Shown here: piece by piece, positions 14,401-64,000 of the stretch
Layout of the letters: the number at the start of each line of letters is the position of its first letter
Numbering within the stretch: the first letter of the stretch is position 1
Source of the DNA: an uncultured Nitrospiraceae bacterium
GTDB taxonomy: Bacteria > Nitrospirota > Nitrospiria > Nitrospirales > Nitrospiraceae
Direction of reading: 5' to 3'
NCBI GenBank assembly: GCA_963730935.1
Contig: CAVSTP010000001.1
Coordinates: 135,646-199,645 of the forward strand
DNA length: 64,000 nucleotides
Position numbers and translations under genes: made by a program
Notes under the pieces: model-generated
Told to the model about the DNA's origin: nothing
The model's database searches: none
Seen by the model: the letters and a program-made list of their open reading frames with translations, nothing else

Positions 14401-14921
14401 ACGGGATCGTCAAGCAAACCGGCGGCAGCATCGTGGTCGAAAGCCGGAAGGACCAGGGCGCCACATTCAAGATCTATTTTCCGCTGGTCGATCAAGGCGC
14501 GACGGGGACAGCCGGAACTCCCGACGCTGAACCGCTGCATGGACGGGAGACGATCCTGCTTGTGGAAGACGAGCCGGCCGTTCGAGGCTTGGTGCATGAA
14601 ACGCTGCGCCTGCACGGGTATACCGTCCTCGAGGCACGCCATGGCATTGAAGCGCTCATGACCGGCGCGAAACATCAGGGGCCGATTCATCTGTTGCTGA
14701 CCGATGTCGTGATGCCGCAGATGAGCGGGCCGGAGGTCGCGGAAAAGATCCAGATCGTCCGGCCAGGGATCAAGGTGCTCTACATGTCCGGCTATCCGGA
14801 CCATCCGGTGTTCGAGCAGGGCGGCATTTCTCGTGACGCGTCGTTTCTCCCCAAGCCGTTCACCCCCAATGTGTTGGCCAAAAAGGTGCGGGACGTGTTG
14901 GACGGCGCGAAGGTAGGGTGA
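11424..14921 (+). CDS. Hybrid sensor histidine kinase (Cache-PAS-PAS-GAF-HisKA-HATPase-REC)
   Basis: Two TM segments, AHDFNNLL, NLAVNARDA, FFTTK..GTGLGL, LLTDVVMP; ATGA overlap with upstream gene. Confidence 0.95.
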   Translation: MSKQDFQQPLDSSRYRWLPQLIILMNLVAVAAAVFLLRSVEHRLVHSTGEELRIAAAEVSDKLDRLLFERYGDAQMMAHAFALQSSDPTYLSSYLGWMRTNHGPVYLWLGVTNRDGTMVAATDASFRGRDFSRTGWFERARATKTIQVDDVAVHDPDNGTEAIAFTAPILDPAGTFHGVVTSRVAISTLEEVTTRTVRSLEARQEFAGAVAFEMVTSEGMVFVDSDLLHKAPLDRPQSDLLASKAPPFGDAGFVEEEYRGRPVVTGFARTKGFGDFPGLGWHVLVRMDRDRILEPITSILWKVGITGAVVWIPMVFLLFWSTSHLRAEYQQVQQESSWARAAEAALLQSQERNRAIVETALDALVTVDAAGIVTDWNGQASTIFGWSREEALGQRLSELIIPPKDRDSHEGGLRQYLATGEAHFLNRRVEVQALRRSGAEFPVELAISPVRVGGTIFFSAFIRDITERREAETKLKESEIRYRSVVNALDEGVVVIDAGGVVRTGNASAERILGLPADELTGRSLHDGRWRTIHEDGSPFRSEDYPAAVTLRTGEPRVSVVMGVYRPDGRLRWIDMNSRPLPAEGGNGPSAVVVSFSDITERKRSEERLTAQYAVTRVLAESRSLEEAMPKIMQAVGQNLEWDCGIFWRVDRNASLLRCLDQWRTPGVGVEAFLEPTWERTFKPEEGLPGRIWASGKAAWITDVAHDANFPRQGLAHEVGFHGAFGFPVRVGGDIEGIIELYSRQVRVPDEELLKMIEDVGLKLEQFGDRTRAQEALQQTEAQLRQSQKMEAVGRLAGGVAHDFNNLLTVIRGYSELLLARLAPDDSIRKDLIEIKKAADRASGLTRQLLAFSRRQFIAPKVIDLNALIANMDGMLRRLLGEDIVELCTELNPHTGSIRADAGQIEQVIMNLAVNARDAMPKGGRLTMETRNVTIGKPTHQTPAGVKPGSYVLLAVRDTGHGMDEETQSHLFEPFFTTKEKGKGTGLGLSTVYGIVKQTGGSIVVESRKDQGATFKIYFPLVDQGATGTAGTPDAEPLHGRETILLVEDEPAVRGLVHETLRLHGYTVLEARHGIEALMTGAKHQGPIHLLLTDVVMPQMSGPEVAEKIQIVRPGIKVLYMSGYPDHPVFEQGGISRDASFLPKPFTPNVLAKKVRDVLDGAKVG

Positions 14922-46764: not shown

Positions 46765-47619
46765 ATGGGGCGAAAACTCGAAACGGCGCATATCTCATTC
46801 GGGCTGGTCACCATCCCGGTGGGAATTTACTCCGCCATCGACGAACAAGACATTCACTTCAACCAGCTACACGCACCCTGCGGCAGCCGCATCAAACAAC
46901 AGCGGTACTGTCCCGTCTGTCAACGCGATGTGAAGTATGAAGAACTCGTGAAGGGTTATGAGATTGCGAAGGATGAATATGTCCGCATCGACCCCGAGGA
47001 ATTAGACCAGCTGCAGGCAACGGAGAGCGAGGCCATGCAGATTCTGGAATTTGTCCCGTTAAGCGCCGTCGATCCGATCTATTTCGAAAGCACCTACTAT
47101 TTGGGTCCGGAGAAGCAGGGAGAAAAAGCCTACCAGTTGTTGGCGCAAGCCATGGAGGAGATGGAGCGGGTGGCTTTGGCCAAGTATGTCTGGCGTGGCA
47201 AGGAAAGTTTACACATCATCCGCTCGAACGGCGGACGCTTGCTCCTGCACCGGATGTACTATCAGGACGAGATCAGGCCGTTTGAAGAATTGCCCAAGAG
47301 CGATCAACAAGCTGCCGCTGCAGAGTTGAAGCTGGCTACGCAACTCATCGAGTCGATCTCCAGCGACACATTTGATGCGGGCGCTTATCGGGACGAGTAT
47401 CGTCAACGAGTGCTCGAGCTGATTGAAGAGAAATCGAAAGGAAAAACCATCAGCTTGACCCCGAAAGCCGCCGTGCGTCCGACGGATGTTGTGGATCTGA
47501 TGCAGCGGCTCAAGGAGAGTCTGGCGCAAAATGCACAGAGGAAAAGCGCCCGCTCTCGAGCGCTGCCCGCTCAACCGGCTCGCGAGTCCGCAAAGAGAGC
47601 GTCTTCCGGGAGACGATGA
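46765..47619 (+). CDS. ku: Non-homologous end-joining protein Ku
   Basis: ISFGLVTIPV, FNQLH, VKGYE, YFESTYYL, YRDEY, VVDLM. Confidence 0.95.
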   Translation: MGRKLETAHISFGLVTIPVGIYSAIDEQDIHFNQLHAPCGSRIKQQRYCPVCQRDVKYEELVKGYEIAKDEYVRIDPEELDQLQATESEAMQILEFVPLSAVDPIYFESTYYLGPEKQGEKAYQLLAQAMEEMERVALAKYVWRGKESLHIIRSNGGRLLLHRMYYQDEIRPFEELPKSDQQAAAAELKLATQLIESISSDTFDAGAYRDEYRQRVLELIEEKSKGKTISLTPKAAVRPTDVVDLMQRLKESLAQNAQRKSARSRALPAQPARESAKRASSGRR

Positions 47620-48431
47620 CCGGCGAATATTCCTCAGCCGACCTCCGCCGCATTCTTCGCCTCGATGGATCCAAGCTGCGAGCCTGTCTTCGCGCCGCTC
47701 TGCTGCCTATTCCCCAAGAAGAGTCCTCCTGCACCTACTCGTTCCAGAACCTGGTGATCCTGCGCACCGCAAAAGGACTGACTGAGGCAGGCGTTTCGGT
47801 TGCCAAGATACGAAAGGTCCTCGAATGTCTGGAGCGGCAACTGGGGGAGGAGACCGCCATCTCAAGCCTGAAAATCTATGCGTCAGGGAAACGGGTGGTC
47901 GTATGGGATGGCGCCTCGCGCTGGCAACCCGATTCGGGGCAATTTCTCCTGAACTTTGAAATGGGACAGATGCTTCCTCCACGGCCACTGACGGCTCGCA
48001 CGGCGGTGCGACAGAGCGACCGTGAGACGGCGCAACGATGGTATCAACGGGCGGTGGCCTTGCAGGACAATTCCCCGGAGGAAGCCCGTCACGCGTATCA
48101 AGAAGCGATCCGCTTACATCCTGCCTTGACCGATGCCCACGTCAATCTAGGACTTCTACATCACAACCTTGGCAACCTGGCCGACGCGGAAGTTTGTTAC
48201 CGGCGTGCCCTGGAGTACGAGCCGAAACTCTCGCTCGCGCATTTCAACCTTGGCGTTGTTCTTGAGGATCAGCAGAAGAAGAGTGCGGCCATCTCGTCAT
48301 ATCAGGAAGCCCTCAAACATGCTCCCGATTTTCTTGAGGCGCATTGTAATTTGGCTCAATTGTACGAAAAGCTCGGTCGCAAGCGAGACGCCTTTCGGCA
48401 CTATGCTGCGGCTAATCGGCTGAGCGGCTGA
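47616..48431 (+). CDS. MerR-like HTH + TPR protein
   Basis: YSFQNLVILRTAKGL, SGQFLLNF, 3-4 TPRs; ATGA overlap with ku. Confidence 0.85.
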   Translation: MTGEYSSADLRRILRLDGSKLRACLRAALLPIPQEESSCTYSFQNLVILRTAKGLTEAGVSVAKIRKVLECLERQLGEETAISSLKIYASGKRVVVWDGASRWQPDSGQFLLNFEMGQMLPPRPLTARTAVRQSDRETAQRWYQRAVALQDNSPEEARHAYQEAIRLHPALTDAHVNLGLLHHNLGNLADAEVCYRRALEYEPKLSLAHFNLGVVLEDQQKKSAAISSYQEALKHAPDFLEAHCNLAQLYEKLGRKRDAFRHYAAANRLSG

Positions 48432-50875: not shown

Positions 50876-50953
50876 GTCCCCATCGTCTAGCCTGGCCTAG
50901 GACGCCGGCCTTTCAAGCCGGCAACACGGGTTCGAATCCCGTTGGGGACACCA
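50876..50953 (+). tRNA. tRNA-Glu(TTC)
   Basis: GTCCCCA...CTTTCAA loop...GGTTCGAATCC...TGGGGACACCA. Confidence 0.97.
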
Positions 50954-51012
50954 CACTCGGTGACACAAGCGGGGCGGGGAGGAGTTGCAGGTAGGAACCT
51001 TGGCCTGTGACG

Positions 51013-52581
51013 TTATAACCCTTCTTTCCCTCCATCGTCTTCGAATACCTCAAACTGCAGGGGTTGGTCTAAGAGCTTCCGAAGGATCTGTCTGGCCTCG
51101 GTGCGTTGACGGTCCAGAAGGCACTTAGCGTCCGAAATTCGGCTCCTCAGTTCCCGCTTCAGTCGCGTCTCATCCAATGTCACCACATTGGCCGGCATGG
51201 TGAGGCGGTCTAACTCAGCCGCCAACTCTGTCTTGCGCGTTTCTTCGGCCTTCAGCTTGGCGAAGAGCGGTTCCATGTGCTGTCCCTTAGCGATCGCCTC
51301 GACGAGGTTCTTCTCATGGGTCTCGATCAGCGAGAGCTCCCGCTCGATGGTTTGCCGGCGTGCCAGACGGTCGGTATCCCCGGCCCGGAGCTGAAGCAAC
51401 GTCTTTTCGAGTGAAAGCTCGAGGATCCGTTCGTCCAGCGCTTCCCCGATAGCGCTAAGGACCGCCTTGTCGATAAGGCCCTGCTTAATCCGCACGGCGT
51501 TTCTACAAATCGCAGCGCCGCGTTTACGATGATAGGCGCAGCCATAGGTGCGACCCTTGCGGCGAGCGTAGTCCTTGCCGAGTGCTTCGATCGGTCCCCC
51601 GCAGTGCGCACAACGAGCCAATCCACTCAAGAGGTAAGGCGAGTCGACGTCCCGGAAGACCCCCTTTTGCTTGTATTGTTCGCTGAGATACTTCGTGTCC
51701 CGGAATCGCTGTTGGACCGAATGCCACAGCTCCTCTGGCACAATTCTGAGCTCCGCCACATCCACCGTGACCAGCTCTCCGGCAGCGCGCCGGCGCCGTC
51801 TCTTGGTGCCCCCTCGCTCGATCTTTTGCAATTCGCCCCACACGACGGTGCCTCGATACAATGGACGGAGGAGGATTTCTCGAATAGCGGTAGGACACCA
51901 ACCTAGAGAGGTCCGTGGAGCTGGTATCTGTTCCTCATTCAACTGCTTGGCAATCCGGCTGAGGCCCATTCGGTCGTCGAACATGTTGAAGATCCGTCGA
52001 ACAACGGCCGCTTGGTCATCGTTCACAGCCCGGAGAACGTGTAACCGGCGCCCTTCCGTTGAAAGTACTTCGCGATTGTCGTATCCGAAGACTTTTCCGC
52101 CCGTCACATGGCCGGCTTTCGCCTTTCGCAACATCGCGTCAAAGGTCCGCTGTTTCGCGCGCTCGCGTTCCATTTCGGCTGCAAAGCCCGTCAGCGAGAG
52201 CATAACCTTATCCAGCGCGCTGTCTAGCGTCCGCTCGCGATCCTCGAGATAGAAGAATACGCGTACGCTGGCATCCGTTATCTGCTTCAACGCGTACGCC
52301 GTTTCAATTTGCTCACGGCCTAACCGCGATTCTTCGGACATGACGAGGATCTGAAAGAGTGGCCGAGGCTTCAGGGCATTCATGAGACGGATGAAGCCCG
52401 GGCGCTTCACGAATTCGGCGCCTGAGATGCCATCATCGACAAAGACATGTTCATCCGAGACGCGCCAACCCTTCTTGATGGCGTATGCCTTCGCATGTTC
52501 GATCTGCCTAGTCACTGATTTCTCTTCATCTGAGATACCGTTTTGCTCAGTCGATTTCCTCGCATAAATGGCAGCTATCAT
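51013..52581 (-). CDS. Large serine recombinase (resolvase + recombinase + Zn ribbon)
   Basis: YARKS catalytic Ser, DDGISG, RPG, SRLGR, FGY, YLLSGLARCAHCG..C..C, coiled coil; probable frameshift near 51027. Confidence 0.95.
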   Translation of the reverse strand: MIAAIYARKSTEQNGISDEEKSVTRQIEHAKAYAIKKGWRVSDEHVFVDDGISGAEFVKRPGFIRLMNALKPRPLFQILVMSEESRLGREQIETAYALKQITDASVRVFFYLEDRERTLDSALDKVMLSLTGFAAEMERERAKQRTFDAMLRKAKAGHVTGGKVFGYDNREVLSTEGRRLHVLRAVNDDQAAVVRRIFNMFDDRMGLSRIAKQLNEEQIPAPRTSLGWCPTAIREILLRPLYRGTVVWGELQKIERGGTKRRRRRAAGELVTVDVAELRIVPEELWHSVQQRFRDTKYLSEQYKQKGVFRDVDSPYLLSGLARCAHCGGPIEALGKDYARRKGRTYGCAYHRKRGAAICRNAVRIKQGLIDKAVLSAIGEALDERILELSLEKTLLQLRAGDTDRLARRQTIERELSLIETHEKNLVEAIAKGQHMEPLFAKLKAEETRKTELAAELDRLTMPANVVTLDETRLKRELRSRISDAKCLLDRQRTEARQILRKLLDQPLQFEVFEDDGGKEGL

Positions 52582-52595
52582 GCTCCCTCCGATCT

Positions 52596-52793
52596 TTATT
52601 GCACGAGATCCGCTATCGAGACGCCAAGTGCCTTAGCGAGCCTCTGCAGCGTACTCAACTGCGGATCATGCCGCCCAATCTCCAGTCGTCCAATATAGGC
52701 CAAGCTCACTCCTGCCCGTTTCGCGAGATTAGCTTGGGTAAGCCGTTTCTCTTTTCGAAGATTCTTCAGCCGTTTACCGAGGCTATTCCTCAT
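52596..52793 (-). CDS. XRE-family HTH regulator
   Basis: LKNLRKEKRLTQANLAKRAGVSLAYIGRLEIG..P..TLQRLAKALGV. Confidence 0.92.
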   Translation of the reverse strand: MRNSLGKRLKNLRKEKRLTQANLAKRAGVSLAYIGRLEIGRHDPQLSTLQRLAKALGVSIADLVQ

Positions 52794-52798
52794 GCGAA

Positions 52799-52829
52799 AC
52801 TTATGACCTAAAGGTAATATAGTTGTCAA
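52799..52829 (-). promoter_or_regulatory. Promoter with overlapping palindromic operator for xre-recombinase
   Basis: TTGACA-N18-CATAAG; TATGACCT-AA-AGGTAATA imperfect palindrome. Confidence 0.55.
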
Positions 52830-53065
52830 GAGGGGATAGTGCTTCGCGGTAGTTCGCCGATCCCATGTTGCCGAAGATCCTTCACAAGAGCGTCCGCTAA
52901 CACGCTCGCGACTTGATCTACGAGCGTGACCGGCCATGATGAAGAGGCCACGAAGGGGCAATTTACCGTAGCGAGTTCCGCCCGGCGGTTCGTTCTTTTC
53001 GAAGAAGACGGATTGTTACTCATTCGTGCCTGTTCAGCGTGGGGCTGATTCATCTTCTGCTGCAT
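52826..53065 (-). CDS. Small hypothetical protein
   Basis: 79-aa ORF in the co-oriented string; helix DQVASVLADALVKDL. Confidence 0.5.
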   Translation of the reverse strand: MQQKMNQPHAEQARMSNNPSSSKRTNRRAELATVNCPFVASSSWPVTLVDQVASVLADALVKDLRQHGIGELPRSTIPS

Positions 53066-53073
53066 TCATCACT

Positions 53074-53634
53074 TCAGTCCTCTGACTTATCCGTATTCAC
53101 AACGGCTGCTTCCTGCTCTTGCTGTTCCTCAGCAGGCACAGACTGCAGGCCTGTCTTCAGTGCTCTACGCTTGTAAATCGATCCGACTCGATCGTCGATC
53201 ATCCTTGAGAGGGTGCTGATGTTCTGAGTGGACTCGCCTCGCTCGAGGCGCTCCTTGTCGAAGGCCGTTCCTCCCGCGATCGTTGCCGCATTCAAATACC
53301 CCGCTTTTTGAGACGGCGACAATGCGTTGGCAATGGCATCATCCGACAGCTCTGCTCTCATGCGATCAAGGGCGAGGTGTTGCACCTGAACCGCCTTGCC
53401 CTGGAGGTTGGCCATTTCATCGGCCCGGACGCTCTTAAATCGCTCCAGGGCCTGCTGTTCGGGCTTCGTCCGCTCAAGGAACCGCCACACCGTAGAGGGT
53501 GCCACGCCTTGATGCTGAGCGATCTCTTGGGTCGAGAGCCCCTTGGCATGGAGTTCTATAGCCTTCCTTCGGTCCAGCTTCCGGGCCTTGCGCTGAATGC
53601 GTTGGGTGAAACTGGGCTTTCGCGACCGTGCCAT
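53074..53634 (-). CDS. HTH protein, terminase small subunit-like
   Basis: N-terminal HTH (GLSTQEIAQHQGVAPSTVWR), helical middle, GTAFDKERLERGESTQNI. Confidence 0.6.
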   Translation of the reverse strand: MARSRKPSFTQRIQRKARKLDRRKAIELHAKGLSTQEIAQHQGVAPSTVWRFLERTKPEQQALERFKSVRADEMANLQGKAVQVQHLALDRMRAELSDDAIANALSPSQKAGYLNAATIAGGTAFDKERLERGESTQNISTLSRMIDDRVGSIYKRRALKTGLQSVPAEEQQEQEAAVVNTDKSED

Positions 53635-53651
53635 CGGCCAGCGTTCCTTTC

Positions 53652-53784
53652 GTCGTTTAGGTCGTTTTGGTCGTATCCTTTACCTATTCACTGATCCACA
53701 GTTCTTCTCTTCTTTGTGGCACTACGACATTAACGACATAAACGACATATTAAGAATCCCTATGCTTTGGTCGTTTTGGTCGTA
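53652..53784. repeat. 9-bp iteron array, putative replication origin
   Basis: GTCGT cores at 53652/53661/53670, inverted ACGAC at 53724/53733/53742, GTCGT at 53770/53779. Confidence 0.75.
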
Positions 53785-56131
53785 CCAGGAAACCATCGCT
53801 CAATGGGCCTTCCGCCGCCGCTGTCGTGAGTTTCGGACCGGGCGAGTCCTTGCTGTTTCAGGAGAGACAACCCCCTATCGATCTCGTACCCCTTCCGATT
53901 CCGGCCAAACCAGTCCCGAATGTCTGTTCGCGTCATTCCGCCGGCATGCTGGTGGAGCGCATTCATGAGTTCATCGGCGATCGGATCGCCCAGTCTTTCG
54001 CCGAAGATATAGCGAGCAGAGGCCTCACAGTAGTTCCAGAGCGCTAGCGCGGCGCGCAGGTGTTCGGCGCGGATCGATGCGGACTGGTCCAGAAGGGCGT
54101 ACAGACATGAAAGCCGGACCACTTGTGCCTCACTTCGCGAGATAATCGCCCCGAGCAGGCCAGGCTTCCCTTCCGACAGTGTGGGGTATGCCTCGTGCCA
54201 TAACCTTCGCGCCTCGTCGTCGCGTCGGAGTACATTGGTCCCTCGAGCAAATTGGACCGCACGTCCGAGCTGCCGTGTGACAGGGGTGAAATCGACGGTA
54301 TCCAGCCGGCCGCCTTCTGGAAGGCATTTAGACCGCTCGACACAAGCCCACAGGAAACGGTTACAGAACCCGTTGGCGGCCTCCGTCGTATTCAAGAGGC
54401 GCGAGAGTTCATCCTTGGTGATGTGTCCCAGGATTGAGATGTGTGCACCGGTGGCTTTTACCGAGCTATTCTTTGTCATGGTCCGAAGGTCACCAGCATC
54501 CCAGGCTTGGCGAATCACTGAAGACAGCGTATTGCCATCACGCTCACTCACGCGAAGCACCGTTGCAAATTCTGATTCCAGAACGAATAGCCGTTTATCC
54601 TCTACGCCCGGGTCGTCGATGACCGTCTGATACTCGCCCATGTGTTTCCCGTTCTTTTTAATTGGCTCCATTTTCTCGTGCGCATCCCTCACCTGGAAAA
54701 TCAGCCCTTCGCCTGAGGAAAGTCCAGAGACCACACGGGTTGTGACCCATCCGCCATCAATCGAACGAAAAAACTCCTTCACATGATCCCAGGATGTCCC
54801 CTTTCTCCCTTTCGATGTGGCACCGACCAGCACCGCGAAGAGATTCATGGCGTGTCGTGTGTGCCCAATTTGAAAGTGTGGTGCACGGTTCAGAGCATTG
54901 CCAAAGGCAAGCAATCCTTGAATTAAGATCGCGACGGGGTCAGCTTCGGTGTGCGGTTCAAGCAAGTGAACGAAGTCGCCCATCACGCCATGCAGCGCAA
55001 GGGGATCGAGTGTTGGACGCTGGGCATAGGAAGGGCATGGCGCCGCCCTTTCTTCAACTTCAAGGCTCGATGGGGCTTGTACGAGCTGGCCATCCACCTC
55101 TTTCCCATTAAAAAAGGCAAAGGCCCGATAGAGCGTCCGCTCGTAATAGTCCTTCCGGAGCTTCAGATCGTCTTTGTGCTTTCGTCGGCAGGCGATCAGA
55201 AGGTTCACGATCTCTTGCGCCGTCCAGTTAGCCGCGAAGGCCCTGGTCGCCAGACTCATATCGTAGGAGGAGGCGGATTGATCCTGGAGATCCGTTCGCG
55301 CATGCTCCCATGAGACTTTGAATTTGAGATCGATTTCACAAAGACGGAGGAACTTTTCGGCTGGAGGTTCGGCGTCGGCATTGATGACAAACACGAACGG
55401 AACGGTCGGAGAGCAGGGTGCGAGTCCAGCAATGCCGTTTGCGACGAGATAGGGTTCTAAATCTGAGGGGTCGTAACGTCGGCCATCGTCGCAGTGCAGG
55501 AGCCGTGTCGGGCAGGGCGGTTGTTCCCCTTTCCGATTCCAGGTACCCGGTAATCTCATGATTCGTGCCAAGTCGCCGACTTGATCCGCATCCCAGCCCT
55601 GCTCCTTTGCCCTTGCACGGAGCGTGTCACACCATCCCTTCGTCAGGACTTCGGCTTTCAATCGGTCTTCATCGCTGTCGAACACCCAAGGTTCTCGAAA
55701 GAGCCACCATGCATGAAAGCCGTGGCCACTGTGGATTAATAGGGTCGGCGGGGTCCGAGTTCTCGGAGCAATTCCAACGCAGTATCCTGAGTCGGCGGTA
55801 AGTTTTTCTTTTTATGCCCGTCACCAAAGTCGAGATCGACCCAAACTCCCGGAATTGCTGTCACAGCTTCACTAAGGCCTCGCTGTGCTGGACCTAAATT
55901 CTCACCCCCGGAGACCGCAACCGATGTATACGTTTTCCACTTCTGCCCAGGTGAGCAAGTGGCCGATGAGATCGTCTGTGATGCCGTTTGCCCAAAACGA
56001 CTTCTCAGAGGGGAGCCCATAGAATGAAGCCCACTGTCCCAGGAGCCCATCCGGCCAGAGTGTGCGCAGAAAAAATTCGAGCGCTGGGCGGCCAATGAGG
56101 GGGCTTGATGCATCACTGCAGCCGTGATCAT
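53760..56131 (-). CDS. RepB-like primase fused to DUF3987 helicase-like domain (about 3 frameshifts)
   Basis: VWVDLD, IHSGHGFHAWW, DLARIMRLPGTWN, GATSKGRKGT, SSGEGL, NGFCNRF; indels near 56100, 55910 and 55750. Confidence 0.82.
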
Positions 56132-56382
56132 GCCGCTGTTTCCTCATTCTCGCATTCAATCCCAGGCCTGATCTCTCCGCAATAGGTAGTCAGCGTTGCC
56201 AGTCCGAGACATTCTGCGTCATTGATGGCTCTCTCGATTAGGACGTCACCCCAATCGAACCATTCGCGTACTAAGGCATAAAAGTATTGATCTAGGGTGA
56301 CGGACATTCCTGCAGGGAGATCCCGCGTCTCTACTGCCAGGCGCTCAATGAGAGCGTGAGCTCTCACTCGAAGACGAGGCAT
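56128..56382 (-). CDS. Hypothetical protein
   Basis: 84 aa, ATGA-coupled to the primase. Confidence 0.5.
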   Translation of the reverse strand: MPRLRVRAHALIERLAVETRDLPAGMSVTLDQYFYALVREWFDWGDVLIERAINDAECLGLATLTTYCGEIRPGIECENEETAA

Positions 56383-56471
56383 AATTTGTTTTTCGACTCT
56401 CGCTTAGATATGTTTTTCATCACACGGTTCTCCTTTTAAGACCCAATTCGGTTGCGGCCAGCTGGGCTTTG

Positions 56472-56714
56472 TTATTGTTGACATCCGCCTCCATCACGCA
56501 CTGAACCAACCAGTGACCGAGATCGAATGGCAGAACGAAACAGCGTTGAGGCCTGTGCACCTACTGCTTCTGCTAAACGAGCCCTTTCCTCCGCTGTTGG
56601 ATCTATGAGGCCACGCTCGATCATCGAATAGCGGCCCTGACTCATACCGCTTCCACGACTGAGTTCCCACTGGCTCAACCCTTTTGACATGCGGAAAAGT
56701 TTGATTTTGAGCAT
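56472..56714 (-). CDS. XRE/Cro-like HTH protein
   Basis: RMSKGLSQWELSRGSGMSQGRYSMIERG; GGAG SD. Confidence 0.85.
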   Translation of the reverse strand: MLKIKLFRMSKGLSQWELSRGSGMSQGRYSMIERGLIDPTAEERARLAEAVGAQASTLFRSAIRSRSLVGSVRDGGGCQQ

Positions 56715-56839
56715 TGCAGCTCTCCCTGGTTGTGATGCTTCATCAAGCACCCCCCGACTATCGCATAGCTAGAAAGGTGCACATCTGGCACCTTAGCATT
56801 CATCAGAATTGCTACCTAGGTAGTGCAGTTCAGTGGAGG

Positions 56840-57620
56840 CTAGCGAATCAACGTTTTGGAGTAGAGCCGGCGACGAATAGTGCTAAATGACAATCCGTGG
56901 TAGTGGGCCAAGAATTGAAGAGACACTGCAACAGATCCGGTGCTGTGATGCCCATTTGGCGAGTAGATCATCAGAAGGGAGAGATGTCTCTCGTTCGCAG
57001 TCAAGCGACGGACAGCGAGTGATCCGGTTGAGTCCGACCAGAATTCGGCGAGACCGCTGCCAAGCCACTTGAGTCGAGGTCTCAGCGAATCGCCTGAATA
57101 GTTTGTGAGTTCTTGTAATATCCACCTTGATTCATGACGAAGGATGATCGGGCTGGGGTGTTTAAACAGAGTTGCGATAATAGACAGGGTATCATTGGCA
57201 AATCGGCCGACTTCCTCATTGCTATAAGTTCGCTCCCTGATAGGCCTTGGTCCTATGTTTGTTTCAACGTATGCCAGTAAACACTCTTCAAGGATATCTA
57301 AATGAAATCGCTCAGCCTTTTGGCGGGTCGCCGGTTGAGTAAAATAAATCAGTATTCCCCGAAGTACTCCACGGAAAAGTTTAGAGGGATATTACAGCTC
57401 CTTGGTAGCGCTGTGTATGCTGACGCCTGTACGCGTCGAGTTTCTCAGCCACACGCTCATCAATTGATGAGCCTGTCTGTTGTCTTTTCATCCTCCTCCT
57501 GTCGGCTGCTGGCCAGGAACTGTGGGCAGCGCCAGTATATTTGGAGTTGAATTTCTACATGAGCTTGGAAGGCTGTGTGTCGCGGCGGTCTCGTTAAACG
57601 TAGAAATGTAACCCAGGTCG
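56840..57620 (-). pseudogene. Frameshifted hypothetical protein
   Basis: Long open stretches joined by indels, ending ...FLAHYHGLSFSTIRRRLYSKTLIR. Confidence 0.35.
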
Positions 57621-57669
57621 GCCACCTAACACGTTTTACGAGATTACGATCGCTTGTCGGTTGCAGTTC

Positions 57670-59170
57670 CTTTTTCTTTACGCGCCCAGACCGTTTCCGC
57701 CTTGAGCGTTCGCTGTCAGCTGTCGCTCTTAAAGCCGCGATACGCGCGAGCAGTGCCGCTGCGCTCTCGTAGTCACGTCCCTCCCGACGAGCCAGCTCGG
57801 CCTCGAGCGGTACAAGCTCACCACGGAACACCTGTGCAAGTATCGCTTGCCTCACCTTGTCACCGAACTCCGTGCCGTGGGCAAGGCGACTTCAATGCCG
57901 TCGGCCAAGGTGTTGAGGGCCTCTACTCGTCTTATGATCTCTTTCTGCTACCTAGAGAGGGGGGAGTGCGATAACCATCTCTCGCACATTGTCCAGGTTC
58001 AGCCCGGGCTTTCCAGCGCCGTAAGCGGCTTCGAGTAGTTGTGCGCGTCCATGAGAAGGACCAATGGTCCACAGGTGTAGCCAATGGGCAAGCTCTGTCA
58101 ATGCCGGTCGGACCAAGGCCACATGCTGGCTGACATAGCCTTCTTTGATTGGACAGTTCACCACGGCCGCCTTCGTCACGTTAGCACCCGTAATAGTGAT
58201 GAGAATGTCGTTTTCCTTCACTCTCGTACGGGTACCTTCTGCACCTGCTGGTGGCTTCACGCGTGCAACGGCGTTAAGTAAAAGTCTATCCGTGTTGATG
58301 TCTTGCGCCCGGATGAAGACTGCCCCTTTGTCCGAGTAGTACTTTGCCCACCCGCGTGAGCCGCTCGTAATCAGGCTGCTGATCTGATCACAGCTCACAA
58401 CACACCATGTTGCCGGATAGTCCAAATCGATGCGGGCCGGTTTTTTCGCTTCTCGCAATCCTTCCTTGGCTCTAGCCTTAAGCGCCCGCTCGAAAAGCAG
58501 AAACGCAGATTCTGACTCAAGAGCGGACTTGCGCCAATCCTCAGTCAACCGACCTGAGCAAGCGGTCGCAATGACCGCCTGTCGCAACCGCTGTAGGATG
58601 AATTGCACCTTCGTCAGATGATTGCGGGCTATGCTTCACGCGAGTGAGCAGGGCGTTGGCCTTGTCAACGATGCGATGCTGCTCTTCAAGAGGCGCAACC
58701 GGGACGTTAAACGAGCTAACGTCAGCAAGCGAAATATTGTTCATCCCTCCGCCACGAGCTTTTTGATCGACGGCATGACGCCCGATCTCAGAATCGAGTA
58801 CGAGCCGAAGGTAGCGAACATCGAGCACTTGATCAGTCCCACGGATAATTGCGAGAGCTTGGTTCGTATTCGCTGGCAGGTCCTCAGGACTAACCACGCA
58901 GCTCTCCCCAAGAGTGCCTGCGATGGAAAGCAATACCTCGCCTGCACGGAGAATTGAGCGAGCTTGAGCTTTATGTGCTTCTGCGGAGATGAAGTCTCGC
59001 AGAGTTAAGTGGTCAATCTTACCATTTCGAAGGTTCTCGACCTTCACAAAACGGATGCCTTCTTTCTGAAACTTGAAGCCGTAGGAGGTTGGAGTTGCAC
59101 CTTTCGTAATCCGGTCTGCGAGAGAACCGAGCCTCTCTGCTACCCAGCCTTCAGGCAAGACGTCACTCAT
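57670..59170 (-). CDS. hsdS: Type I RM specificity subunit (frameshifted; 3' end approximate)
   Basis: LPEGW, two TRDs, PVAPLEEQHRIV, RQAVI..SGRLT, RQAILAQVFRGELVP. Confidence 0.88.
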
Positions 59171-60612
59171 TTCGTTGCCATTTTGTGCTCAGATCCACCG
59201 TTCTCCAGCATCCGCAGAACATCATTCAACTCGTTCACCGCCTCTTCCAACTCCTCGATGGCGTCCGTCGCCAGCTCCTCGGGCTCCGGCAGCTCGTCGG
59301 CGTCTTCGAGCGACTCCTCCTTGAGCCACTTGAAGCCGTCGAGCTTGAACTCGCGCTCCTTGACCTCGGCGATGTGGAAGCTGCGCCAGCGGTCCTCCTT
59401 CGAGTCGGACGGCTTTGCGCTTCGCCTTGCCGTTCGGGTCCGCGCCGAAGCACTTCTCGAACTCCGCGAAGTGCGCCGGCGTGAGCGGCCGGTCCTTCTT
59501 CGTGATGCCGGGCACGTTGGTGCGCGCGTCGTAGATCCAGACGGTCTCGGTCGGCGTAGCCCTTGGTGAAGAAGACGACGTTCGCCTTCACGCCCTGGCT
59601 GTACGGCGTGAACGTGCCGCGCGGCAGCCGCAGCACGGTGTGCAGGTCGCAGTCCTCGGTCAGCGATCTTGAACACCTCGCCCGCCTGGTCGGCGAACAG
59701 GCAGTTGTCCGGCAGCACCACGGCGGCGCGGCCGCCGGGCTTCAGGATCGTCAGGACGTGCTGCAGGAAGTTGAGCTGCTTGTTCGAGGTCGCGACGGTG
59801 AAGTCGTCGCGCTCCGGGGCCTGGTTCGCCCCCTTGGTGCCGAACGGCGGGTTCGTCAGCACCACGTCGAAGCGGTCGCTCGACGGCGGCTCGTAGATCG
59901 AGTCGCCGAGCCTGATGTGCGGCTCGATCCCGTGCAGGTACAGGTTCATCAGCGCCAGCCGGCGCGGCCGCGGCGACCAGGTCCTGGCCGAAGTAGGTAC
60001 CTGCGTCTTGACCCGCTTGGCCATGTCGCGATCGAGCGCGCCCTTGGTCTCGCGCGATCAGCCACTCGTAGGCGGCGACGAGGAAGCCGCCGGTGCCGCA
60101 CGGCCGGGTCGCAGATGGTGAAGTCGGCGTGCCTCGCGGGTCGGGCTTCATGCAGCGGACGATGGACTGGATGAGGACGCGCGGCGTGAAGTACTGCCCC
60201 GCGCCCTTCTTCCCTTCGCTCGCCGCCTTCTCCAGCAGCCCCTCGTAGGCTGCGGCCTTCACGTCCACGCCGAGGGCGTCCACTCCGTCTCGTCGATGAG
60301 AGTCGACGAGCTTCTTGAGGTTGACCGGGTTGTTGAAGCGCGACTGCGCGCCCGCGTAGATGTCGCCGAGGATGCCCGGCGTCTTGCCGAGCTTGCGAAG
60401 CACCTCGACGTAGTGGTCGGTCAGGTCGGTGCCGCTCTTGTCGCGCGAGCGTCGGCCAGTCGCATATCCCTTCGGGCAGATCGATGCCTCGTCTCGTCGG
60501 CCATCTTGAGGAACAGCAGGTAGGTGATCTGCTCGATGTAGTCGCCGTAGTCGATGCCGTCGTGGCGAAGGGTGTGGCAGAAGCCCCAGAGTTTCTGAAC
60601 GACGTCGGTCAT
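59167..60612 (-). CDS. hsdM: Type I RM N6-adenine methyltransferase (multiple indels)
   Basis: MTDVVQKLWGFCHTLRHDG, GQYFTPR, CGTGGFL, NPPF, LPEPEEL. Confidence 0.9.
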
Positions 60613-63289
60613 GCGGCGATGGCCTCGTTGAGTTCGTGAAGCAGCGTCCTCGAGCCGGCCGCCGAACACTCGGCGCAGCGACGCCCAGCCGCCGTCGTCG
60701 CGAGAATACGGGATCAGGTCGAAGTCCTCGCGGTCGATCGAGAGGTTCTCGAGCAGGTGCTGCGGATCCGGTCGAGCCATGTCTGCTGCTCGGCGGTGAA
60801 CGTCTGCCCGGCAGTGACCTTCGCGAACGCCGCTCGACGCGTTCGGCGGCCGTCAAGAGCGGCTGCTCCTCTCGGCCGCGTGCTTCACCATCGAGATGAT
60901 GTCCACGAGCGCCTTCTGATAGCGCACCTCGTGCGCCTTCTGAAGGTTGTCGACCGTGAAATCGCTCCGACTCTGCGACGAGCTTCTGCGCGCAGCTCGT
61001 CAGGGCCGTAGCGACTCCACTCCTCGGGCCGATCGAGAAGGATGCGGATCGCCTCGATCTGCGCTGGGTTCTCGCGACGAACCGCGCGAACGCTGCGAGG
61101 TAGTCCTCGGGCTTGTACTCGTTGCCGGCCGCGTCGCGAAACTGACCATTCGGACGACACCGTCATCCTCGGCTCGGTGGCGCCGTAGAAACGTCCGCTG
61201 CGGCCGCGGATAGTTGACGAGCAGGTCCTGAAACTCGTCGTCCCGCAGGAGTCTTCATCGCCTCGACGAAGTCGCTGCGCAGCGTCGACGGGAAGCCGCG
61301 CGCGTACTTTGCGAGATCGCCGTCGGGCACGAAGGCTGCGAACAGTCTCGCGCGCCTCGCCCGACATCTCCTTGTCGATGCGCTGGAGCCGCTTGACGAG
61401 GCAGCCGATGTTGTAGTCGCGGTCGCGGTTGCTCCAGATGTCGTCGATGATCTCGCTGATCGTCCGCGTGGGCGGTGTCGGGCGGCTCCGCCGTGATGCC
61501 GGTCGCGTTCTTGAAGTACTCGAGCAGCGTGCCGTCGAAGCAGTCGAACACGGTGAAGTGGGACTTGTCGGGAAACTTCTCGCCCTTGCGCGTGCCGCGC
61601 CCGAGCATCTGCTCGAAGAGGATGCGGGACTTCACCGGCCGCAGGAACACGATGAACTCCAGGTCGGGGATATCGACGCCGGTCGTGAGCAGGTCGACGG
61701 TGACGGCGATGCCGGGTCGGGCCGGTTGCGGAACTCGCGGATGCGCTGGAGCGGCCGGTCGACCCGGCCGGTGATCTTCTGCACGAAGGCGTCGCCGCGC
61801 CCGAACACGTCGCGGCAGATGTCGACGAGCTGGTCGGCGTGCGACGTGTGGGGCAGGTCGTTCACGGCGAAGATGAGCGTCTTCGGGAAGCGGCCGTACC
61901 GCTGCTCGTGCTCGAGCGCGTACTTCTTCAGCTCCTCGATGATCTTGCGGTTCGAGTCGGGCGCGGTGACCTTGCGCTCGATCTCGCCGTGTCGAACTGC
62001 CGCTCGTCTTCGAGCTGGTCCAGCTGCTCGAGCGCCGGTCTCGGGATCGACGACCTCGACGTTCTCCCCTTCGTTCAGGAAGACGCCGTTCATCCGCACG
62101 TCGGAGCTTGACCGTCACCGCGTCGTAGTCCACGAGGTAGCCCTCGCGCACGGCCCGCTCGTACGTCGTAGCGGAAGACCTGATGCGTGAAGTAGGCCTT
62201 GGTGTGGCGGCGGGCGTCGCGGTGAGGCCGATCTTGATCGCGTCGAAGTGGTCGAGCGTGTTCCGCCAGACCGACTCCTCCGCGGCGGTGTAGCCGCGAT
62301 GGCACTCGTCGGCGACGATGACGTCGAAGGCATGAATGGGGATGTCGAGCCGGTCGGCGTCGTCGTCGATCTGCTTCGTCGCCGAGTCCCGAAGATCGCC
62401 TGCTGCGACCGAAGAGGTTGATCGCCATGCGCTGGATCGTGCAGACGTAGACGAAGGCGTGCCCGGGCTGCGGGTCGGTAGGTACTTCGGCGGCAGCACC
62501 TTCGGGTCGAACTTCTCGTCCTCGCCGAAGTCCTCGCGTCTGGAAGCGCTGGCTGTAGACCTCGTAGATCTTGTCGAACTTCAGGCCGGGCTCGGCCTCG
62601 AACGACGCAGAAGGCGCGCACCGCCTGCGCCGCGAGGGCGCGGCGATCGACGAGGAAGAGGACGCGCTTGCGCGACGCCGGACTTCATCAGCCGGTAGAC
62701 CTGGTTCACGAGGGTGAAGGTCTTGCCGGTGCCGGTCGCCATCGCGACGAGCATGTTGCGCTTCCGCTCGGCGATCGCCTTCTCGACGGCGGCGTTCGCC
62801 TCCCTCTGGTAGGTCGCGGAGCGCGGGTGGTCGTTCGGGAGTCGCCAAGCAGCTTGTCGCACGCGGCCTCGAAGTCGCGAGCGAGCAGCTCCCGAAGGGC
62901 GCGGCGTGTGGAAGGCGGCGAATCGCGCCGCGAGCGGTTCAGCGGGTGCCGGACGTCGTGGAACCAAATGACCTCGCCGTTGGTCGAGTAGAGGAACGGT
63001 GCGCGGAAGCCGCCGAAGTTGAACGGGCCGGCGCTCGAGACCCCGTCGCGTACCGCTCGGCCTGGGTCAGGACGTTCTGCGGACCGAGCGTGAGCTTCTT
63101 CGCCTCGACGACCCCGCGACGTGGTCGTCGAGCCAGAGCGCGTAGTCGGCCGGCCCGTTGTCGGTCTCCTCTTCCTCGGTCCTGTGCGCCCCGATCGCGT
63201 TAGCGCTTGGCGAGCGTCCATCCGTGCGCATCGAGCTTCGGGTCGATACGGCGCTTGCGGGTCTTCCACTCGCTCTCGTCTTCGCTCAT
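60609..63289 (-). CDS. hsdR: Type I RM restriction subunit, EcoEI/EcoAI-like (many indels)
   Basis: MSEDESEWKTRKRRID, YSTNGE, MATGTGKT, DECHRG, GLTATP, LTTGVDIP, QMLGRGTR. Confidence 0.9.
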
Positions 63290-63536
63290 CGTGTTTTCGC
63301 AGGGTGTAAGTACAAGGCTTGTTCCGGCCGAAAATTGATACTCTGCCCGACCGTTAGGGGCCGAATGGCGGCGTAAGAGGCATATTTGCCTACATTTTGG
63401 CGGCGCGAGTCTAGCGGATGTGAGCGGAAAAAGCGAGGTCCGGAGAAATGCTCAGGGCTCAGGGCCTGGCGCCTATCGCTACCATTTCAAAGGAAATAGC
63501 TATAATATTGGGCCTACAAAGGTTGAGATGGGCTGA

Positions 63537-64000
63537 ATGATCCTATCTTTCGCATACAAAGGTCCTACAAAAGAACCATGGGAGTTTGAGGAAACTTCAC
63601 TAAGTAAAGTGAATCTCCTTGTCGGGGCTTCAGGATCGGGTAAGACGAGGTTCTCAACACGATATTTAATATCTCTATCTCCATTGTTAAGGGGGAGCCA
63701 TTCAGGCTTGGCGAGTGGGAAATGACTGTAAGAACGCAAGAGTACGAGTATAGATGGGAATCAACAGGCGAAAGGGATGAAAAAGGGACATCTTTCATGA
63801 GTCGTGAGACCATAAGCCGGAAGCCTTTGAATTCAGATGGTCAGATGGAAAATTTGGTTACTCGCACACGAGAGGATTTTCTTTTCTTAGGCAATAAACT
63901 TCCAAAGCCCCAGCTGGATAAACTTAGCGTTACGTTGTTGAAGGAGGAAGAAAGTATTCGACCCCTTTTTGAGACTTTCAGTAATGTCCAACGACGCAAT
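63537..64000 (+). CDS. ABC/AAA_21-type ATPase N-terminus (frameshift near 63650, runs off window)
   Basis: VNLLVGASGSGKT Walker A; the other frame stays open to the end; AT-rich. Confidence 0.7.

Follow-up and report, generated by a model that had tools for sequence, protein, structure and literature searches.

What becomes of a site-specific recombinase whose gene ends inside the very site that it recombines? The question is raised by the right end of contig C1 in a 4.05-Mb genome of six contigs, where the window (the whole stretch of DNA that was analysed, 64 kb in length) holds a large serine recombinase gene on the reverse strand (51013..52581, a called ORF of 522 aa), identified by Resolvase, Recombinase and Zn-ribbon domains above the Pfam cut-off, by its homologues and by the fold match of one of them, P0080. 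The gene points at a host tRNA-Glu(TTC) on the forward strand (50876..50953; ARAGORN, Rfam RF00005), which is the integration target and whose 3' end is restored by the inserted element. The sequence bears out the original prediction that the called ORF stops at 51013, where it terminates in GGKEGL* after GGAGGGAAAGAAGGG, and that the adjacent frame, reading KKGYNVTGQGSYLQLLPAPLVSPSVVSPTGFEPVLPA*, continues antisense to tRNA-Glu as far as a TGA on the reverse strand (50913..50915). The TCA opposite this TGA lies in the anticodon loop and overlaps the anticodon TTC at 50912-50914; by geometry only, an mRNA that reaches the read-through stop covers at least 41 nt of the tRNA. The downstream frame (50913..51026, reverse strand) encodes the last beta-strand of DNA-binding domain 2 (KKGYNVTGQGSY), a linker, the core and nine host-derived residues; only about TGFEPVLPA of the read-through tail comes from the host, VSP being contributed by the copy of the tRNA 3' end that the element carries.

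The recombinase gene at its tRNA target

The att core corresponds to the last 17 nt of tRNA-Glu (50937..50953, forward strand), of which 17-bp copies occur on contig C4. In relatives, elements are flanked by att pairs, with 11-22 bp common to matched pairs, and because this common identity shrinks to 11-12 bp we place the crossover within the last 11-12 nt of the tRNA (50942-50953). Longer 3' fragments of tRNA-Glu, extending to about the anticodon loop, are present at loci L015, L096, L101, L102, L106 and L196, suggesting a second type of element with a different crossover at the same tRNA.

The integrated element (50954..64000) runs off the contig, the end of the window being the end of C1, and this, together with synteny, assigns its far att to the unassembled part of the genome. 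Directly upstream of the integrase lies a gene for an XRE-family HTH protein (52596..52793, reverse strand), likely to be its regulator, with a similar ORF in 13 other retrieved loci. Farther upstream lies a small conserved ORF without a family (52826..53065, reverse strand), a candidate directionality factor; similar ORFs occur in 8 other retrieved loci, and an ESM Atlas search with it gave no match. Two overlapping ORFs (53760..56131, reverse strand) encode a probable primase-helicase for replication (DUF3987, E 2e-16; a weak RepB primase C-terminal match, E 5e-4). The cargo is a heavily frameshifted type I restriction-modification system (57460..63300, reverse strand), recognized from NCBIfam matches of its fragments and with frame changes in hsdM; its genes stand out between 59000 and 63300 by a GC content of 63-67%, as against about 55% around them, and by dense frameshifts. 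A scan for promoters and terminators gave no signal above chance. On the other side of the tRNA, the window carries at 46765-48431 what we take, from the translations alone, to be a Ku-like gene followed by a MerR/TPR-like gene.

The interruption of the recombinase frame appears to be peculiar to this copy. In a DNA alignment, all five of the closest relatives are one base shorter within 51027..51034 (reverse strand) and read through. The closest intact homologues (77-83% identical) do not end near 51013, as they would have if the original prediction of a longer protein were wrong; most of them measure 555-559 aa, as against 522, and terminate in ...GGKKGYxVTGxGSYLQLLP...VVSPTGFEPVLLP. Over the 17 codons that follow the break, 5-6 synonymous and 2-3 non-synonymous differences separate the window from the five relatives, which indicates that this frame was under selection until recently. 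The slippery run to which the original prediction had drawn attention does not hold up as a conserved signal: none of the five closest relatives carries the break, no stimulatory RNA structure was detected 3' of the run at 51020-51035 (z +1.45), and programmed ribosomal frameshifting is therefore rejected. Sequencing-run pieces over the locus, from four runs, cover the host flank and the tRNA, with none across 51020-51035; in the screen of read runs, the largest share of sequence words found in any single run was 26%. Compared with two to four relatives, 0/19 host genes are frameshifted, and hsdM, hsdS, hsdR and the primase genes of the element are fragmented, as is the integrase of the neighbouring element. 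Since the breaks pile up towards both contig ends, they suggest consensus errors at low coverage, although real decay would give the same picture. An assembly error is thus the probable cause of the break at 51030, and a recent inactivating mutation the lesser possibility. Were the break real, the protein would, according to the P0080 model, lack the last strand of DNA-binding domain 2 (E514-524).

An ending antisense to a tRNA is shared beyond what chance would produce. Among 119 homologues, 86 end in a peptide antisense to tRNA-Glu, 27 run into the same core before diverging, and 6 do neither. Named homologues are labelled Nitrospira or Nitrospirota, and the host is probably a member of this group. 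Relatives in GTDB comprise 192 stretches, of which the best 80 were taken and one, from an unpublished genome, set aside; in 48/79 of these best stretches, distributed over Nitrospirota, Acidobacteriota, Rokubacteria and Methylomirabilota, the ORF ends inside a tRNA called by ARAGORN (Glu, Ala, Ser, Arg or Lys). A tmRNA also serves as target in relatives. The peptide obtained in this way is nonetheless not a constant one. The tail proposed for homologues on the basis of the window is indeed shared past 51013 by the closest of them; across the 119, however, tRNA-Glu is entered in frame A by 36 (SPTGFEPV...), in frame B by 38 (GVPNGI) and in frame C by 12 (WCPQRD.NPC...), and the stop falls wherever the host tRNA or other RNA happens to supply one. 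Because homologues enter tRNA-Glu in all three frames, the tRNA-derived tail is, by its sequence, probably unselected and not a functional part of the protein, and no support emerges for an importance of its stop in the anticodon loop.

A conserved tail at the far attachment site

The counterpart of the tRNA side is the far att, which, read in the direction of the integrase, continues into a short stretch without an upstream gene. Core copies were located in 50 genomes for Glu (49 of them related to homologue matches or of the same genus), in 25 for Ala/tmRNA and in 25 behind other loci, a subset being fetched. Tails were defined, by a rule formulated after tails had been seen, as peptides of 15-35 aa ending in xA or AV in the integrase's frame; random positions satisfy this rule in 1.6% of cases per frame, and its strict Ala-Ala version in 0.7%. 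Examples are tails of the ...FSIDLLVEAA type, WGIPFKGFVNAA and FTIQGKVLAA. A pair consisted of an integrase and the next core copy on the same contig (n=33; for L173, the nearer of two copies), leaving aside L128, which is unpublished, L140, in which the near core was not located, and L197 and L200, which had no integrase match. Some pattern matches in the Ala/tmRNA set (L079, L081, L086, L088 and L090) were discarded as chance matches inside genes or without a tail.

In 30/33 same-contig pairs, a tail at the far att is in frame with the integrase to which it is paired, and in 23/33 it has a strict Ala-Ala end; two of the exceptions have no tail and one has a tail in another frame, and 10 pairs are without strict Ala-Ala. 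The frames themselves vary (A in 16 pairs, B in 13 and C in 4), and permuting them yields a mean of 12.6 matches, with 30 reached in 0/100,000 permutations. The Nitrospirota-type Glu pairs taken by themselves give 13/14 matches against 5.0 by permutation. All three pairs found after the rule had been fixed match as well (L219 A/A, L224 B/B and L227 B/B), including in L219 a close relative of the window's enzyme, whose frame-A tail ends in RVYVA. Of five cross-contig pairs kept outside the count, G128, G250 and G282 matched and G263 and G007 did not. On a tree of the 30 matched integrases and that of the window, the frame changed six times and the tail followed every change, kin not being independent; likewise, the FxIDL class of tails is present in frames A, B and C.

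The tail itself bears the marks of a protein sequence. It is found in 41 of 47 distinct Nitrospirota-type Glu junctions and ends in Ala-Ala in 35 of them, as compared with 45/2214 of the long ORFs of this genome and with 0/72 of the tRNA-side junctions with a long open frame. Among the tails at Glu junctions, each of the four Ala codons (third-position entropy 1.8-1.9 bits) and each of the three stops is in use, a sign that selection acts on the protein and not on a DNA motif. The tails commonly read hydrophobic-x-Ala-Ala-stop, with alternating hydrophobic residues at -8, -6 and -4; Val occupies -4 in 30 of 41 tails and Leu -3 in 9. One class lacks Ala-Ala and is represented by the neighbouring element of this genome (ALPAFF), whose frame-B tail is 22/38 identical to that of L224 (ALLASI). 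In acidobacterial tandem arrays (L141, L150, L153 and L157), integrases that lie next to one another are joined in frame to the tail of their neighbour, and these tails include a helical-looking class, WNQLDRWLRQVERLRRAA.

With an in-frame tail at the far att and a tRNA side without Ala-Ala, excision would rebuild a conserved tail that integration removes. Our analysis thus provides strong support, with a probability that we put at about 0.95, for the reading that attP lies inside the integrase gene and that a selected tail is swapped upon integration. It upholds the two central elements of the original prediction, an attP within the recombinase gene and a C-terminus that differs between integrated and excised states, and adds that in relatives it is the excised-state tail that is conserved and locked to the frame. 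The swap is established in relatives and can be extended to the window copy by inference, its own far att falling in an assembly gap.

Where this far att resides can nevertheless be narrowed down. A profile search across the contigs of this genome did not find it, and three exact copies of the core on C4 were considered and rejected: C4:998736 has a frame-B tail and is 0.8 Mb away, C4:1778166 is a decayed remnant and C4:1802083 is the junction of the next element. The DNA past tRNA-Glu in G061, a genome with a single core copy, matches C4:1745660 downward. The right end of C4 carries a second integrase, frameshifted and 56% identical, and the contig breaks off in the first three bases of the core; six further core-like junctions lie at C4:1776344-1802067, where the opposite strand has 0 and a control stretch 1. 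On account of this synteny, the core start at the end of C4 and the stack of junctions, the window element appears to head a tandem array, and its far att lies most likely in the gap between C1 and C4. No excised circle was seen, and viral contigs contained no relative.

Further traces of such elements lie outside the window in this genome (G000). The stretch C4:1756947-1802083 is a stack of six or more att junctions that retain remnants of tails and are not separated by any integrase, an accretion array downstream of tRNA-Glu, and similar stacks exist in G001 and G040. Orphan far-att arms away from tRNA-Glu are found at C4:998736, with an intact frame-B tail ending in LLVEAA, and at C4:6794, C2:631369, C2:891750 and C2:336928. 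A third large serine recombinase (C4:12807-14453, 24% identical) points at a tRNA-Met, c[14485-14560], and may share the layout of a gene over its att site. An island remnant of 5.5 kb with the same core type and a decayed tail sits at the tmRNA (C2:680581-686152). The small contigs C5 and C6 repeat sequence from the ends of C2 and C1 (86-99.9% identity), which suggests that strains are mixed in the assembly.

Function of the excised-state tail

Solved serine integrases (SPbeta, Bxb1) align with the model of P0080, a natural fusion that includes the tail, over 381-484 residues (Z 15.7-17.2, rmsd 14-27), and the alignment stops at about residue 530-540, upstream of the core. The tail would accordingly be an add-on, and the model implies that both forms of the protein keep the whole canonical integrase fold, as solved integrases align only upstream of the core. 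What the add-on does is a different matter, and the reading that we would place first, at roughly even odds and from sequence considerations, is that the attP tail acts as a ClpXP-type degradation tag. Tail classes of differing type and length converge on Ala-Ala, clpX is present in the host and the host tmRNA tag ends in ALAA. In a screen in Escherichia coli, 91% of the top 100 degrons ended in Ala-Ala; the portion of that report bearing on sequence also states that Ala-Ala alone is insufficient and that most beta-branched residues are depleted at -4 (PMC10862746). Measured against the consensus [LFYW][LAR]LAA, an E. coli one that may not be that of the host, the tails deviate by having Val at -4 in 30/41 and Leu at -3 in just 9/41, a deviation whose weight depends on what the host ClpX prefers. 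Against a degron, the hydrophobic alternation at -8, -6 and -4 exceeds what one would need, the strand predicted by AlphaFold leaves just two terminal residues free in P0080, the class of the neighbouring element has no Ala-Ala and 10/33 pairs lack it in strict form.

To judge from the relatives, the large serine integrase of this integrative element recombines inside the final codons of its own gene, where these meet the 3' end of tRNA-Glu. Excision would fuse the gene to the short conserved tail stored at the far att, and in the integrated copy the gene runs into the tRNA in antisense and stops after a few unconserved residues. Under the degradation-tag reading, a free circle would make a tagged, short-lived integrase, limiting re-integration after excision, and in a new host the tag would restrict the lifetime of the enzyme so that integration comes as a pulse only. 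Presumably, the circle, with its probable primase-helicase gene, could replicate or be transferred while re-integration is limited, and the integrated copy would supply a stable enzyme for excision once the upstream regulator permits it.

The alternation that sits awkwardly with a degron is what would be expected if the tail were a beta-strand docking on DNA-binding domain 2 and tuning activity or direction, with Ala-Ala as a secondary trait; we consider this possible but clearly less probable, and hold in the same tentative manner its corollary that the tailed enzyme integrates and the tail-less one is biased to excision or less active. AlphaFold, run with an alignment of 123 rows, places a strand at 562-570 of P0080 (pLDDT about 75) past a disordered linker; in that alignment, however, the aligner put 39 short tail rows in the wrong place, columns 564-572 are covered by just 3-9 rows, and a 30-row run gave pLDDT <50 in the same region. 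The existence of a tail class without Ala-Ala fits a docking strand, as do the report that integration of Mx8 changes the specificity of its integrase with no inactivation (PMC6070905, in the part concerned with integration) and the importance for directionality of F532, near the C-terminus of the SPbeta integrase, in the section of PMC11722253 dealing with that residue. Solved integrases, on the other hand, offer no aligned equivalent, and tails of widely differing class and length still converge on Ala-Ala. Degron and docking strand can coexist. Combining them, it is conceivable, if rather doubtful, that this widespread enzyme family directs itself without a directionality factor, its C-terminus being rewritten at each recombination: the circle would encode an enzyme whose tail sits on DNA-binding domain 2 and, once released from it, is recognized by ClpXP, and the integrated element a stable, excision-competent one.

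A self-disabling design, in which folding or activity depends on the tail, integration leaves a dead enzyme and a tandem or incoming tailed enzyme performs excision, seems to us quite unlikely. McMurdie et al. suggested the like in their remarks on DsiB (PMC3146451), the archaeal suicidal integrases described in the relevant part of PMC8371274 provide a parallel, and in-frame fusions do arise naturally at tandem junctions (L134, L141, L150, L153 and L157); yet the core lies downstream of every catalytic and DNA-binding domain, unlike in splitting of the SSV1 type, single non-tandem elements with an intact integrase and both att sites are common, and many tandem junctions are out of frame. That the tRNA-encoded tail is itself functional, by way of programmed frameshifting at 51020-51035, is hardly tenable and already largely refuted, for the SPTGFEPVLLP common to the closest relatives is dictated by the sequence of the tRNA, three frames occur among homologues, whose targets comprise at least five types of tRNA as well as tmRNA, relatives have no frameshift and there is no downstream structure.

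Significance and relation to known systems

The question addressed here is how excision is controlled in serine integrases without an obvious directionality factor, and the family lends itself to a comparison of two constructs, the tailed and the tail-less enzyme. There is also a practical side, inasmuch as genome mining yields integrases of this family with the tail of the integrated state (86/119), so that it may be the wrong form that is annotated, cloned and assayed. Furthermore, the tail serves as a marker for att junctions, and it was in this way that the stack of at least six junctions downstream of tRNA-Glu was exposed.

Of the precedents invoked in the original prediction, the repressor of BPs provides a fair parallel in the removal of a tag, and SSV1 turns out to be more distant than Mx8 and DsiB. 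In phages BPs, Brujita and Charlie, as described in the pertinent section of PMC3694055, recombination within a gene removes a C-terminal proteolysis tag; in those phages the repressor gene contains attP and the integrase bears its tag before and after integration, whereas in the present family it is the integrase that exchanges its tail, with proteolysis as a proposal. The XRE gene of the window, at 1.6 kb from the core, does not contain attP. The suicidal integrases of SSV1, pTN3 and pT26-2 are tyrosine recombinases split into N- and C-terminal parts by an att site in the integrase gene, the catalytic part being set apart, according to the part of PMC8371274 devoted to them, in contrast to the present family, in which catalytic and DNA-binding domains stay together upstream of the core. 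With the canonical large serine integrases (SPbeta, Bxb1 and phiC31), it shares domain order and fold to about residue 530, and the attP-form tail extends past the aligned range of those enzymes.

The Mx8 integrase is a tyrosine recombinase. It is placed among them in the text of the 2014 Islander report, which also states, in its passage on targets, that tRNA genes were not known as targets of serine recombinases (PMC4383910). In Mx8, attP lies inside the integrase gene and integration creates a new 3' end, activity being altered and not abolished, as the section of PMC6070905 on this point relates. The same kind of switch, an attP in the gene that changes the C-terminus, is seen here in 30/33 and 3/3 pairs; unlike in Mx8, the enzyme is a serine integrase, and its exchange is limited to about 15-25 residues that lie outside the canonical fold. 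In the literature covered, largely open-access main texts, no paper was found that describes for a serine integrase an attP tail locked to the frame or resembling a tag: the term 'tRNA' is absent from the main text of Durrant et al. 2022 (PMC10083194), and the portions of PMC12884075 that bear on the subject contain nothing on tails.

The closest likeness, by description, is DsiB of Dehalococcoides, a serine recombinase of about 540 aa whose gene lies over attL, in tandem islands and alongside integrase-less cassettes. In the account of McMurdie et al. 2011 (PMC3146451), the 3' end of dsiB lies over attL in every case and the stop falls beyond the island, and DsiB is perhaps fully functional on the circle only. 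The modules differ, DsiA, RecF-like, ParB and Mom genes at ssrA being described there, as against HTH, primase-helicase and type I restriction-modification genes at tRNA-Glu in the window, and so does the range of targets, which is ssrA in Dehalococcoides and tRNA-Glu, Ala, Ser, Arg and Lys plus tmRNA among the relatives studied here. The C-terminus of DsiB is described as divergent, and no conserved attP tail, frame-locking or tag is named in that description. The layout is hence already in print for DsiB and Mx8, while evidence from frame tracking that the tail of the excised state is conserved seems not to have been published; such tracking turns what McMurdie et al. remarked on DsiB in 2011 into evidence that selection acts on the protein made in the excised state.
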